Assembly (NCBI RefSeq): GCF_013315695.1
Contig: NZ_CP054353.1
Reading direction: 5' to 3' (one strand)
Length of the DNA stretch: 64,000 bases
From: Escherichia coli
GTDB lineage: Bacteria; Pseudomonadota; Gammaproteobacteria; Enterobacterales; Enterobacteriaceae
The translations under genes and the position numbers were made by a program. The notes under the pieces were generated by a model. It was not told the DNA's origin. It saw only the letters and a list, made by a program, of their open reading frames with translations, and did not search any database. This document shows positions 3,883 to 24,078 of the stretch, piece after piece (the first letter of the stretch is position 1; each line of letters starts with the position of its first letter).

Positions 3883-4958
3883 CTGTACTGATTCACGTAC
3901 TGGGATCGGATATCCCTCACCATAACCGAACCGTTCTGCGGTTTTTCAACGACGCGCTGGCCGCGACGAGCGAGCACGCGCGCGAGTTTATGGTTGTTGG
4001 CAAGGACGACGGCTTAAGTGATAGCTGTCCGGCGCTTTCTGTGCAATTTTTCCCTGGGAAAAAATCGCTGGCGGAAGCGGTCATCGCGAAAGCAAAAGCT
4101 AACCGTCAGCAGCGATTTTTTTTCCACGGTCAGTTCAATCCCACACTGTGGCTGGCTCTGCTGAGTGGTGGCATTAAGCCCAGCCAGTTTTACTGGCATA
4201 TCTGGGGGGCAGACCTGTACGAACTTTCCAGTGGCTTGAGATATAAGCTTTTTTACCCGCTACGTCGCCTGGCGCAAAAGCGAGTCGGCTGTGTATTTGC
4301 CACCCGCGGCGATTTGAGCTTTTTTGCCAAAACGCACCCAAAGGTGCGGGGCGAACTGCTGTACTTCCCGACGCGGATGGACCCTTCTCTCAATACGATG
4401 GCGAACGATCGGCAACGTGAAGGGAAAATGACCATTCTGGTGGGCAACTCCGGCGACCGCAGTAATGAGCATATTGCTGCCTTGCGCGCCGTTCATCAGC
4501 AATTTGGCGATACGGTAAAAGTGGTGGTGCCGATGGGATATCCGCCTAATAACGAAGCGTACATCGAGGAAGTTCGTCAGGCGGGGCTGGAGTTATTCAG
4601 CGAAGAAAATCTACAAATTCTGAACGAAAAACTGGAATTTGACGCCTATCTGGCACTACTTCGCCAGTGCGATCTCGGCTACTTTATTTTTGCCCGCCAG
4701 CAGGGCATTGGTACGCTGTGCTTGCTGATTCAGGCGGGCATTCCTTGTGTGCTTAACCGGGAAAATCCGTTCTGGCAGGATATGACAGAGCAACATTTGC
4801 CGGTGCTGTTTACCACAGACGATCTCAACGAAGATATTGTGCGTGAAGCGCAGCGCCAGTTGGCTTCGGTGGATAAAAACACTATTGCCTTCTTTAGCCC
4901 TAACTATCTACAAGGCTGGCAGCGGGCGTTGGCGATTGCCGCCGGGGAGGTCGCATGA
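3879..4958 (+). CDS. wecF: TDP-Fuc4NAc:lipid II Fuc4NAc transferase
   Basis: 359 aa; 4-bp start/stop overlap with wzxE; gene order. Confidence 0.9.
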
Positions 4959-12304: not shown

Positions 12305-12728
12305 GCAAAATGCTCCGGTTTCATGTCGTCAAAATGTTGACGTAATTAAGCATTGATAATTGAGATCCCTCTCCCTGACAGGATGATTGCATAAATAATA
12401 GTGATGAAAATAAATTATTTATTTATCCAGAAAATGAATTGGAAAATCAGGAGAGCGTTTTCAATCCTACCTCTGGCGCAGGTGATATGTAAGGCGGTGA
12501 TGTTATATCGCGTTGATTATTGATGCTGTTTTTAGTTTTAACGGCAATTAATATATATGTTATTAATTGAATGAATTTTATTATTCATTATATATATGTG
12601 TAGAATCGTGCGCAGGAGAAATATTCACTCAGGAAGTTATTACTCAGGAAGCAAAGAGGATTACAGAATTATCTCATAACAAGTGTTAAGGGATGTTATT
12701 TCCCGGTTCTCTGTGGCATAATAAACGA

Positions 12729-12935
12729 GTAGATGCTCATTCCATCTCTTATGTTCGCCTTAGTGCCTCATAAACTCCGGAATGACGCAGAGCCGTTTAC
12801 GGTGCTTATCGTCCACTGACAGATGTCGCTTATGCCTCATCAGACACCATGGACACAACGTTGAGTGAAGCACCCACTTGTTGTCATACAGACCTGTTTT
12901 AACGCCTGCTCCGTAATAAGAGCAGGCGTTTTTTT
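12729..12935 (+). ncRNA. glmZ: GlmZ small RNA (activator of glmS translation)
   Basis: sequence GTAGATGCTCATTCCATCTCTTATGTTCGCC...AACGCCTGCTCCGTAATAAGAGCAGGCGTTTTTTT matches my recollection of GlmZ including terminator hairpin; CATAAT -10 element ~7 nt upstream. Confidence 0.85.
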
Positions 12936-13533
12936 ATGACCGGATAAAGAACTGGTTACGTCGCTCCTGGGTCATCGGTTGCGCGTTTAACACTCTTACA
13001 AGAGAGCCTACCGTGACGATGGGAAGAAACGGATTCTCTTCTATTCCGCATAGATCGCGCCCGCAACGAGCAGCGGTATCTTCAACCAGCTCTTCTAACT
13101 CGACTGCGTCGCTCACCAAATCCAGATCATCGTCCAGTATATCATCGGCTTTCAGTGGCAGTGGGTAATCGATATAGCCGTTTCCTTGCAAGGTATCCCA
13201 CACCGCACGAATCACCCATGTATCTACGGTGTAGGTGTCAAATTCGCGGGCGAACTGGCAAATGGAGCGTCCCCGACGTTTATCTGCCATGATTCGGTAC
13301 TTCTTGAGGATCTTGATTTTTTCCTGCTTCGCCGCAGCTATCAGATATCCAATAAAAAGTGTTAACCAGAAGATGAATGTATTGCCCGTACGTACAAAGG
13401 AAATAATCAACCAACTTACGCCAGCCAGAGCGGCACATATCAACAAGATTAAAAAGAGCGTTGCCCGAAAAGGAGTAATTTCATGCGATGGCAAGCGGAA
13501 AAGATAGCGGGACGGCGTGCGCAATTTTGACAT
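12934..13533 (-). CDS. hypothetical small membrane protein (two predicted N-terminal TM helices, acidic C-terminal domain)
   Basis: uninterrupted 199-codon ORF lying between the glmZ terminator and the hemY terminator; weak translation-initiation context; family not recognised. Confidence 0.45.
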   Translation of the reverse strand: MSKLRTPSRYLFRLPSHEITPFRATLFLILLICAALAGVSWLIISFVRTGNTFIFWLTLFIGYLIAAAKQEKIKILKKYRIMADKRRGRSICQFAREFDTYTVDTWVIRAVWDTLQGNGYIDYPLPLKADDILDDDLDLVSDAVELEELVEDTAARCGRDLCGIEENPFLPIVTVGSLVRVLNAQPMTQERRNQFFIRS

Positions 13534-13538
13534 CCTGG

Positions 13539-13569
13539 TAAAAAAATATCGCCTCTGAACGAGGCGATA
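13539..13569 (-). terminator. intrinsic terminator downstream of hemY
   Basis: on minus strand: hairpin TATCGCCTC-GTTCA-GAGGCGATA followed by TTTTTTT. Confidence 0.65.
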
Positions 13570-13573
13570 TAGA

Positions 13574-14770
13574 TTACTGTGACGGGTTATTCTGTAAGGT
13601 CAGCATCAAACCGTCGCGGCGCATCGCTGCAGCTTCTTCTGGTTTGTGCAGTCTGTCCAGCGCGTCGGCAAGCCATGCGTAATCGTAGGCGTCCGGACGT
13701 TGTTTCAGCGCCGCGCGGAAGGCGAGCGATGCTTCCTGCCATTCGCCGTGCTTCATCAGCGACTGACCCAGTGTGCTCCACAACAACGGGCGATCGCCCA
13801 CGTTTTTGATCTGTTGGCGCAGCACTTTTTCCAGCTGTTCCGGGTTATTGGTTTTCAGACGCGGGATCGGCAGCAGCAGGCGATCGTCATACTGGCGTTT
13901 CAGGCCGTCGATGATAATTTGCTGGGCGGTGTCATGGTCATCACACTCAATAAGGTGTTCCGCCATTGCCACCTGTAACGCCACCTGATGACGCGTTTTC
14001 CGGCTTTGGTTTTTCCACCAGTTACGCAAACCTTCGCTACCGTTATCGGCACGCGCCTGATCCATCAGGCCAATCCATGCCTGTTGTTCCAGCATTGCAC
14101 GATGTTCTTCATCGCCAACGTGGGCTTTCGCCATTGATGGGATGATATCCAGCAGCGAACTCCATGCACCAGTGCGGATATACGCCTGTTCCGCCAGACG
14201 TAATACTTCCGGATGGCGTGGCGTAACTTCCAGCAGCTTATCCACGCCGTGGCGTGCAGCATGGTTTTCATTACGGGCCAGTTGCAGACGTACACGGGTG
14301 ATTTCTACCGGAATTGTGTCGTTGCCGGCCAGCTCCGCTGCGCGTTCCAGATGTTGGTTGGCGCGTGCTTCATCACCGCGTTGTTGCGCGGCTTCGGCAG
14401 CCAGCAGATAGTTCACCACCGGTTGTTCAGCGTGATCGGCATTTTTCGCCATCAGCTTTTCAACTTGCTGATAATCGCCTTCCGCTAGTTTCAGCAGCGC
14501 CTGTTCGGTCTGCTTACGGGCACGGCGACGCTTACGTCCGACAAACCACCCACGGGTGTGTGCGCCTGTGCGGAAGATCCGCCGCAGTAGCCACTCAATG
14601 GCAAACAGCACTACCATCGCCAGAATCAAAATAATCGCCAGGCCAGTGACGCTGGTTTCGATATTGTAGTTGTCGGTCTGAATCAATACGTACCCCTGAT
14701 GACCGGCAATCATCGGGCCAACCACGATCCCCGCAATCAGCAAAACAAAGAGCAATAACACTTTTAGCAT
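13574..14770 (-). CDS. hemY: HemY protein (TPR-containing inner membrane protein of heme pathway operon)
   Basis: 398 aa; operon position. Confidence 0.9.
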   Translation of the reverse strand: MLKVLLLFVLLIAGIVVGPMIAGHQGYVLIQTDNYNIETSVTGLAIILILAMVVLFAIEWLLRRIFRTGAHTRGWFVGRKRRRARKQTEQALLKLAEGDYQQVEKLMAKNADHAEQPVVNYLLAAEAAQQRGDEARANQHLERAAELAGNDTIPVEITRVRLQLARNENHAARHGVDKLLEVTPRHPEVLRLAEQAYIRTGAWSSLLDIIPSMAKAHVGDEEHRAMLEQQAWIGLMDQARADNGSEGLRNWWKNQSRKTRHQVALQVAMAEHLIECDDHDTAQQIIIDGLKRQYDDRLLLPIPRLKTNNPEQLEKVLRQQIKNVGDRPLLWSTLGQSLMKHGEWQEASLAFRAALKQRPDAYDYAWLADALDRLHKPEEAAAMRRDGLMLTLQNNPSQ

Positions 14771-23185: not shown

Positions 23186-24078
23186 CCGATTTACACACCG
23201 ATGTAGAACGCTACCTACGTTATCTGAGCGTGGAGCGTCAGCTTAGCCCGATAACCCTACTTAACTATCAGCGTCAGCTTGAGGCGATCATCAATTTTGC
23301 CAGTGAAAACGGCCTGCAAAGCTGGCAGCAATGTGATGTGACGATGGTGCGCAATTTCGCTGTACGCAGCCGCCGTAAAGGGCTGGGAGCTGCAAGTCTG
23401 GCGTTACGGCTTTCTGCGCTACGTAGCTTTTTTGACTGGCTGGTCAGCCAGAACGAACTCAAAGCCAACCCGGCGAAAGGTGTTTCGGCACCGAAAGCGC
23501 CGCGTCATCTGCCGAAAAACATCGACGTCGATGATATGAATCGGCTGCTGGATATTGATATCAACGATCCCCTCGCTGTACGCGACCGTGCAATGCTGGA
23601 AGTGATGTACGGCGCGGGTCTGCGTCTTTCCGAGCTGGTGGGGCTGGATATCAAACACCTCGACCTGGAGTCTGGTGAAGTGTGGGTGATGGGAAAAGGC
23701 AGCAAAGAGCGCCGCCTGCCGATTGGTCGCAACGCTGTGGCGTGGATTGAGCACTGGCTTGATTTGCGCGACCTGTTTGGTAGCGAAGACGACGCGCTTT
23801 TTCTGTCGAAACTGGGCAAGCGTATCTCCGCGCGTAATGTGCAGAAACGCTTTGCCGAATGGGGCATCAAACAAGGGCTGAATAATCACGTTCACCCGCA
23901 TAAATTACGTCACTCGTTCGCTACGCATATGCTGGAGTCGAGCGGCGATCTTCGTGGTGTGCAGGAGCTGCTGGGTCATGCCAACCTCTCCACCACGCAA
24001 ATCTATACTCATCTTGATTTTCAACACCTTGCCTCGGTGTACGATGCGGCGCATCCACGTGCCAAACGGGGGAAATAA
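23182..24078 (+). CDS. xerC: tyrosine site-specific recombinase XerC (chromosome dimer resolution)
   Basis: 298 aa; R..HxxR..Y tyrosine recombinase motifs; conserved dapF-yigA-xerC-yigB operon context. Confidence 0.9.

Follow-up and report, generated by a model that had tools for sequence, protein, structure and literature searches.

The hemY-glmZ interval and its open reading frame

We analysed a 64,000-nucleotide stretch of Escherichia coli DNA (contig NZ_CP054353.1; hereafter, the window) in which an open reading frame (ORF) on the minus strand fills the space between the small RNA gene glmZ and hemY. A first-pass annotation had placed this ORF at 12934-13533, between the glmZ and hemY terminators, and its coordinates and the features around it proved correct. 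The ORF is a real, strain-variable protein-coding gene under selection. The locus is composed of the following features:

12729..12935, plus strand: glmZ small RNA gene, convergent with the ORF (Rfam RF00083, 218 bits; threshold 60)
12901..12935, plus strand: glmZ terminator, a stem at 12901..12930 followed by a T-run
12934..13533, minus strand: open frame read from the first ATG, 199 amino acids (aa), from the ORF list of the window
12934..13524, minus strand: inferred coding sequence, 196 codons from TTG (13524..13522) plus TAA (12936..12934), with the start placed by orthologue alignment
13525..13533, minus strand: three in-frame codons, ATG TCA AAA, before the inferred start; the ATG overlaps AGGA, and the extension is absent outside Escherichia
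13533..13536, minus strand: Shine-Dalgarno-like AGGA, 8 nt upstream of the TTG start
13540..13570, minus strand: hemY-proximal hairpin and U-run resembling an intrinsic terminator (-16.1 kcal/mol, z = -6)
12939..13574, no strand: haplotype-specific segment (636 bp), delimited by comparison with K-12-type genomes
13574..14770, minus strand: hemY, the last named gene of hemCDXY, followed on the same strand by the ORF

Shuffling the 638-bp gap 5000 times with dinucleotide content preserved gave an equally long open frame twice, in agreement with the earlier view that such a frame is unlikely to arise by chance. To measure selection we compared the window allele with those of an O25b:H4-ST131-type strain (ST, sequence type; locus L002) and Escherichia sp. 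E1V33 (L006). The frame was kept in all three alleles, and the ratio of nonsynonymous to synonymous divergence (dN/dS) was 0.22-0.29 at a synonymous divergence (dS) of 0.32-0.39, with similar values in the membrane half and the soluble half of the protein. The corresponding ratio for hemY in the same three genomes was 0.006-0.009.

We searched 5426 complete E. coli genomes and found the long segment in 693 and the ORF, labelled 'hypothetical protein', in 689. The carriers fell into two main allele classes, at least 95% and ~87.5% identical to the window (90 genomes at 99% or above, 14 at 95-99% and 585 at ~87.5%), and the more divergent class takes in O25b:H4-ST131 strains such as EC958. The gene is therefore present in ~13% of complete E. 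coli genomes, pandemic ST131 among them. Of the 689 matches, one is to a plasmid-labelled record, which may be a mis-assigned chromosomal contig.

In MG1655, 47 bp without an ORF separate the glmZ T-run from the hemY stop codon, compared with the 636-bp segment here. Both the expectation that this gap measures tens of bp in K-12 as opposed to ~640 bp in the window and the suggestion that K-12 lacks the ORF were borne out by this comparison. Its absence from K-12 has kept the gene out of laboratory study. The K-12 spacer is unrelated in sequence to the window segment and has its own hairpin without a U-run; in K-12, transcripts of hemY may either stop where the glmZ terminator is read from its reverse side or continue past it. 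The hairpin after hemY in the K-12 MG1655 locus (L062 2640-2689) has a folding energy of -17.4 kcal/mol and was not called as a terminator.

Orthologues located after hemY begin with ATG or GTG followed by CGC ACx CCx, encoding M-R-T-P, and AGGAG or AAGGA lies 5-8 nt upstream of the ATG or GTG in L005, L065, L067 and L002. The conserved start codon is TTG in the window allele and ATG in the ST131 and E1V33 alleles. Because the orthologues all begin M-R-T-P at what is codon 4 of the 199-codon frame, the alignment indicates that translation most likely starts at TTG 13524 to give a product of 196 aa, and that the ATG TCA AAA codons upstream of it are probably not translated. The first ATG (13533..13531) overlaps AGGA with no spacer, and the in-frame triplet is restricted to Escherichia. 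The first-pass annotation had considered the initiation signals weak; this needs correcting, as the orthologue-supported TTG has AGGA 8 nt upstream.

Annotation of the gene differs between databases, with lengths of 118, 196, 199 or 281 aa. The Prokaryotic Genome Annotation Pipeline (PGAP) gives 118 aa from an internal methionine in a genome with identical DNA (L001 3035-3391) and 196 aa in ST131-type genomes (L002 3035-3625). UniProt entries are of 199 aa or, for E. fergusonii B7LU57, 281 aa.

Structure and distribution of the protein family

The gene product is predicted to consist of a membrane hairpin and a soluble domain that resembles acyl carrier protein (ACP). Its parts are encoded as follows (pLDDT, predicted local distance difference test score):

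13498..13524, minus strand: N-terminal motif (M/L)RTPSRYLF, predicted to be cytoplasmic (80-sequence alignment; pLDDT 72-86 in the deep-alignment model)
13396..13464, minus strand: predicted membrane helix 1, residues ~21-43 (hydropathy peak 2.5; AlphaFold helix 18-46)
13327..13386, minus strand: predicted membrane helix 2, residues ~47-66 (hydropathy and charge counts; AlphaFold helix 49-82)
12970..13275, minus strand: ACP-like four-helix domain, predicted to be cytoplasmic, residues ~84-185 (net charge ~-12)

Hydropathy analysis identified two adjoining hydrophobic segments at residues ~21-43 and 47-66, linked by R-T-G-N. The N-terminal tail has a net charge of +3, the strongly basic, membrane-adjacent segment after helix 2 of +8 and the C-terminal domain of -12. 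Since both ends of the hairpin are net positive, the positive-inside rule would place both in the cytoplasm and the loop between the helices in the periplasm, with the ACP-like domain held at the inner face of the membrane. An AlphaFold model built from 14 sequences had a pLDDT of 80; a second, built from 80 sequences, reached a pLDDT of 92.4 and a predicted template modelling score of 0.84, with long helices at 18-46 and 49-82, a helical domain, and a pLDDT of 72-86 over the N-terminal 20 residues. Hydropathy, both models and the net charge of -12 agree with the earlier prediction of two N-terminal transmembrane helices and an acidic C-terminal domain.

The predicted C-terminal domain has the four-helix fold of ACP. 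The top 20 Foldseek matches were all entries containing an ACP, with E values of 0.4-7 and none significant, and the family profile retrieved only ACPs from the PDB sequences, weakly (E 0.7-4). In the profile alignment, the D-L-x-I-D-x-E-D-L of the family is paired with the ACP motif D-L-G-x-D-S-L-D.

Residue conservation was counted in the 80-sequence family alignment. The N-terminal consensus is M-[RK]-x-P-S-R-x-M-P (M in 78, S in 78, R in 75, M in 67 and P in 68 of the 80). R83, F91, D101, R106 and D128 are invariant, and the near-invariant residues include I88, W103, P123, R153, R156, N164-P165 and Q182. The first-pass annotation had pointed to a CGRDLCG motif. This string is present; however, its conserved part is R153, G155, R156 and L158 (R-x-G-R-x-L), and the two cysteines are not conserved, so that it is not a cysteine motif.

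A conserved phosphopantetheine serine, in a D-S-L motif at the N-terminus of helix II, was not found in this alignment. The column that falls on the ACP serine contains D in 24, P in 18, S in 10, E in 8 and G in 6 of the 80 sequences, and the window residue in this column is A140. The nearby S138 belongs to a two-residue insertion, V137-S138, that 73-75 of the 80 sequences lack. Its position is occupied by R in a 97%-identical allele (P0001), by N in the ST131 allele and by C or G in other orthologues. The fold resembles ACP, and the attachment serine is not a feature of the family.

These counts bear directly on whether the protein could be a true carrier, that is, a membrane-anchored ACP phosphopantetheinylated (at S138 in this allele) and shuttling an acyl or aminoacyl group. 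The predicted ACP fold is compatible with such a role, UniProt automatically labels some members 'Carrier domain-containing protein' or 'Acyl carrier protein', and one HMMER register lays DLDLVSDAVEL over the ACP motif DLGLDSLDVVEV, which by our reading puts S138 on the ACP serine. We nevertheless consider a carrier function highly improbable, given the substitutions at S138 among close alleles, the rarity of the insertion that holds it and the mixture of residues in the aligned column, together with the lack of a Pfam PP-binding match and of any gene for an acyl- or aminoacyl-loading enzyme nearby.

The protein belongs to a large, integron-borne family that spans several phyla and has no Pfam or NCBIfam model. 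We recovered 51 relatives from a 90%-clustered protein database, and a profile search at E <= 0.001 returned 940 clusters (50% identity), 721 of them below 1e-10. Species-representative genomes contained 56 loci in Proteobacteria, Campylobacterota, Verrucomicrobia, Armatimonadetes and Planctomycetes, including Kosakonia, Phytobacter, Superficieibacter, Pseudomonas, many Burkholderiales and Sulfurovum. A length of ~170-200 aa, the architecture and the N-terminal motif are kept across the family.

The window protein had no significant match in Pfam, NCBIfam, PHROGs, PADLOC or the PDB sequences, and NCBIfam likewise returned nothing for four divergent family members. The first-pass annotation had not recognised the family, and indeed no named family in Pfam, NCBIfam, PHROGs or PADLOC corresponds to it. 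When the 80 members were searched against Pfam, scattered weak matches driven by the membrane helices were obtained, among them CptA for 2 of the 80 at E <= 0.001, together with very weak matches to DUF1493 for 3 of the 80 at E <= 0.1. Relatives in the AlphaFold database are named 'Uncharacterized protein', apart from a handful automatically given the label 'Carrier domain' or 'Acyl carrier protein', and we found no publication that describes the gene or its family. One relative (P0061, 354 aa) is a head-to-tail fusion of two diverged family copies, each with a membrane hairpin and an ACP-like domain. We also considered domain fusions as a source of functional clues; the longer members were either mis-called starts or the P0061 tandem duplication and were uninformative.

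Outside the hemY-glmZ site, the family was found in two further types of context. In Kosakonia, Phytobacter, Superficieibacter and an Enterobacteriaceae metagenome-assembled genome, the gene lies 22-37 bp after a gene of 375-378 aa. This constitutes a second operon-tail site (L007-L012, ~3960-4610), with arginine-transporter-like genes next on the opposite strand. From sequence and synteny, we take the 375-378-aa gene to be rlmC and the transporter-like genes to be artJ.

The other context is the integron. In locus L004 (1-9102), a family gene belongs to a cassette array in which at least 15 small ORFs on one strand are separated by repeats of two attC-like classes, of 85 nt and 64 nt, that begin with TAAC and end with GTTA. 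An attC-like element abuts the stop codon of the family gene in L028, L034, L041, L042, L043, L045, L049 and L057, and further attC-like copies occur within L034 and L041. Positions 1908-4435 of L057 hold the complete start of an integron: an integron integrase is encoded on the minus strand (TIGR02249, 428 bits; cutoff 265), the first cassette encodes 141 aa and carries an attC, and the second is a family member with its own attC. A truncated integrase homologue adjoins the family member in L034. The attC calls rest on the repeated inter-ORF elements, on TAAC...GTTA ends abutting the stop codon and on the integrase; searches with the strict RYYYAAC...GTTRRRY pattern or by folding were neither sensitive nor specific and were not relied on.

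With family copies at the rlmC-artJ site and in integron cassettes, no tie to heme genes holds across the family. All-against-all clustering of ORFs from 58 loci identified no recurrent neighbour family beyond local synteny; because no neighbouring gene is conserved, the protein probably works alone. The family was absent from a phage collection, and a plasmid collection yielded one match, on an 801-kb Pseudoalteromonas replicon.

Origin and expression of the gene

Four other enterobacterial lineages have the gene immediately downstream of hemY and ahead of the glmZ terminator, with the following identities to the window:

L006, Escherichia sp. E1V33: ORF 83%, hemY 98%
L065, enterobacterial contig: ORF 57%, hemY 92%
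L067, enterobacterial contig: ORF 42%, hemY 91%
L005, nearest protein cluster Klebsiella aerogenes: ORF 41%, hemY 90%

It begins 47-66 bp after hemY on the same strand in the window, L002, L006, L005, L065, L067 and L063. The hemY-adjacent hairpin is homologous between Escherichia and L005 or L067, and only in Escherichia is it followed by a U-run. In E. albertii (L063 2266-2857), the copy is split into overlapping ORFs of 80 aa and 118 aa at the hemY-aslA position, probably by a frameshift.

Within E. coli, two haplotypes match on the left as far as 12938 and on the right from the hemY stop codon; between these points the K-12 type has ~45 unrelated bases. Because unrelated sequences lie between the same flanks, the difference reflects a replacement rather than a simple insertion with target duplication. 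At a dS of 0.32, divergence between the E. coli alleles of the ORF is comparable in size to that of the adjacent hemY 3' end. The last 60 codons of hemY (13574-13753) differ between haplotypes at a dS of 0.35-0.47, compared with 0.16-0.22 in the rest of the gene, and the hemY stop codon is TAA in the window and TAG in K-12. The diverged 3' end and the differing stop codon show that the haplotype block reaches into hemY.

The first-pass annotation had left a choice between insertion here and deletion in K-12. The distribution of the gene suggests that it is probably an old resident of the hemY-glmZ site that was lost from most E. coli, K-12 included, and that decayed in E. albertii and in some other E. 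coli, since several Escherichia species and other genera have diverged orthologues and a homologous hairpin at this site, which favours long residence over recent insertion. Loss from K-12-like E. coli is thus the better supported of the two options. We examined whether the K-12 spacer could be a deletion remnant and rejected this, since no resemblance to the ORF segment is visible in it.

Recent insertion into this lineage, for example of a cassette captured at a secondary site, would account for the absence of the segment from K-12 and 87% of E. coli and would fit the mobility of the family as integron cassettes elsewhere. We consider it quite unlikely. No attC, integron integrase or target duplication was found at the segment junctions, and the only tyrosine recombinase in the window (23587-24015, plus strand) matches IntI1 at 30% over 184 residues. 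From its position near hem and cya genes, this recombinase is presumably xerC rather than an integron integrase, and the IntI1 search gave no other match in the window. The replacement between shared flanks, the diverged same-site orthologues with their homologous hairpin in other Escherichia and in K. aerogenes-type genomes, and the similar dS of the ORF alleles and the adjacent hemY 3' end all speak against a recent arrival. The glmZ terminator was also evaluated as a degenerate attC, which would make the gene a captured cassette, and rejected: its hairpin is perfect, with no more than AAC/GTT at the base, genomes lacking the gene have an identical one, and it belongs to glmZ.

No promoter-like site was found in 12600-13900, the hemY-ORF gap included, so that transcription of the gene would come from hemCDXY read-through. 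A terminator scan and folding placed the hairpin after hemY at 13546..13570 and the U-run at 13540..13545, 4 nt before the AGGA and 16 nt before the TTG start. Transcripts would have to pass this hairpin and U7, in the way that genes in cassettes depend on a promoter upstream of them, and translation would then begin at TTG 13524.

Is the gene, then, a silent or decaying remnant in this strain, conserved by descent and no longer expressed or useful? The window allele has TTG at the conserved start where the ST131 and E1V33 alleles have ATG, a hairpin and U7 terminator stand directly upstream with no promoter-like site, and PGAP calls just the 118-aa internal fragment in a genome whose DNA is identical here. 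Moreover, E. albertii has a split copy, frameshifts interrupt some of the copies in E. coli, and most E. coli have none. Yet the 196-codon frame is intact in three Escherichia allele classes despite a dS of 0.32-0.39, and dN/dS is 0.22-0.29 in the membrane and soluble halves alike. TTG is usable as a start codon and its Shine-Dalgarno spacing is good, and intrinsic terminators usually leave some read-through. We think decay rather unlikely.

At its other end the gene meets glmZ. The stop codon TAA is the complement of 12934..12936, and 12934-12935 are also the last two T of GlmZ; the overlap of the stop with the glmZ terminator reported earlier is thus confirmed and amounts to 2 nt. Because the stop lies inside the terminator, any transcript that reaches it is antisense to the GlmZ 3' end. 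Read on the minus strand, the glmZ hairpin still folds (-21.6 kcal/mol) and is followed by UUAAAACA rather than by a U-run, and therefore the ORF transcript probably continues antisense into glmZ. We would thus expect a minus-strand transcript without a good terminator of its own to run into the small RNA gene.

This arrangement raises the prospect that cis regulation is the main consequence of the locus, with convergent transcription altering GlmZ levels or 3'-end formation and the protein being secondary. The stop-codon overlap and the minus-strand hairpin followed by UUAAAACA are what such a mechanism would use. However, the protein is conserved in families and contexts without glmZ, the overlap is confined to Escherichia (the remaining orthologues end 3-10 nt short of the terminator), and termination upstream should hold antisense transcription low. 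The GlmZ sequence is 207/207 identical in two K-12-type loci that lack the gene (L003 and L062); in the ST131-type carrier (L002) it is 206/207. A primarily regulatory role therefore appears improbable.

Possible roles and relation to known systems

Taken as a whole, the data are best explained by an accessory gene for a membrane-bound ACP-like protein, old at this locus and possibly acting as an adaptor, an explanation in which we have moderate confidence. Its most specific part is more tentative. The acidic helix II surface is kept as in ACPs and, with the conserved arginines and the N-terminal peptide, led us to propose that the protein may be a membrane-tethered ACP mimic or adaptor, a suggestion in which we place low confidence. 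Such a protein would act alone and without a prosthetic group, its acidic helix II and arginines docking non-covalently onto an ACP-binding partner or onto a phosphate-bearing lipid or cofactor at the membrane.

Several observations weigh against this explanation. The resemblance to ACP is distant: no Foldseek match reached E <= 0.001, hhalign gave a probability of 4% against E. coli ACP, and neither the protein nor any of the 80 relatives has a match to Pfam PP-binding (PF00550). The docking or mimic role is a guess drawn from the predicted fold, the charge and the conserved residues. Judged from its sequence, expression of this allele may be very low because of the TTG start and the canonical terminator 16 nt upstream. 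Finally, the E. albertii copy is split, copies in some E. coli (P0026, P0036 and P0038) are frameshifted and the gene is absent from 87% of E. coli; it is therefore dispensable.

A different role for an accessory gene of this type would be that of a stand-alone phage-defence, abortive-infection or membrane-stress effector, with the hairpin as effector and the ACP-like domain as sensor. The family is carried as integron cassettes, and an abundance of small anti-phage systems, often comprising a single gene or a few, has been reported for chromosomal integron cassettes (10.1101/2024.07.02.601686); 'Brigantia', one such cassette, is described only as having a transmembrane domain (10.1101/2024.07.02.601686). 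The absence of a conserved partner gene, the weak matches of 2 of the 80 members to the CptA membrane toxin family in Pfam, and evolution that is fast relative to hemY, as expected of conflict genes, would all suit a defence function. On the other hand, neither PADLOC nor PHROGs gave a match, the family was not found on phages or mobile plasmids, the Enterobacteriaceae copies sit in core operon tails rather than in defence islands, and a dN/dS of 0.25 gives no sign of diversifying selection. We regard a defence effector as unlikely.

If the mimic or adaptor proposal were extended to the whole family, these proteins might form a new class of membrane-tethered, prosthetic-group-free ACP-like proteins, spread across phyla by integrons for a portable one-gene benefit; we offer this as a speculative possibility. 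The benefit could then be the capture or blocking of an ACP-dependent enzyme or of a phosphate-bearing lipid, or one-gene phage defence, and in Escherichia, ST131 included, the gene would be the tail gene of a heme operon whose transcription collides with glmZ. Should the protein have a phenotype, such as phage resistance, an envelope or lipid effect, or control of GlmZ and glmS, it would represent a strain-specific trait of clinically important E. coli. Should it have none, the locus would still illustrate cleanly how a gene of cassette type can become fixed at the tail of an operon and subsequently disappear.

The gene shares features with four known systems. Like the integron-borne relatives, which are single promoterless ORFs followed by attC in arrays near an integron integrase, the E. 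coli gene is promoterless and dependent on upstream transcription. Unlike them, it has no attC or nearby integron integrase and occupies a fixed chromosomal site common to other genera. Downstream of the window ORF no attC was found; the stop codon abuts the glmZ terminator, a perfect hairpin without the imperfect TAAC...GTTA palindrome.

The membrane toxin CptA/YgfX (PF07254) resembles the window protein in being small and located in the inner membrane, with a two-helix hairpin at the N-terminus and the C-terminal domain in the cytoplasm. The matches to CptA, found for the two family members noted above and not for the window protein, probably reflect the hydrophobic hairpin. No cptB/sdhE-like partner adjoins the window gene, whose neighbours are hemY and glmZ, and in contrast to CptA the C-terminal domain of the window protein has an ACP fold. 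The enterobacterial DUF1493 (PF07377) is likewise small and uncharacterised. Its proteins are soluble, ~115 aa long and placed in the same Pfam clan as ACP. The three family matches to it, at E <= 0.1, are not significant, the window protein has none, and we found nothing functional on DUF1493 in the literature.

The comparison with the ACP/PP-binding superfamily (PF00550) is the most informative for the proposed mechanism. True ACPs carry the attachment serine, whereas in the window family this serine is not conserved. Unlike ACPs, the window protein is predicted to be anchored by a two-helix hairpin, its family has invariant R83 and R106, near-invariant R153 and R156 and a conserved N-terminal motif, and no partner enzymes are encoded near the gene. 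An ACP fold that is anchored to the membrane and lacks the serine is an unusual arrangement, and it could point to a new use of the ACP surface as a docking or decoy module.

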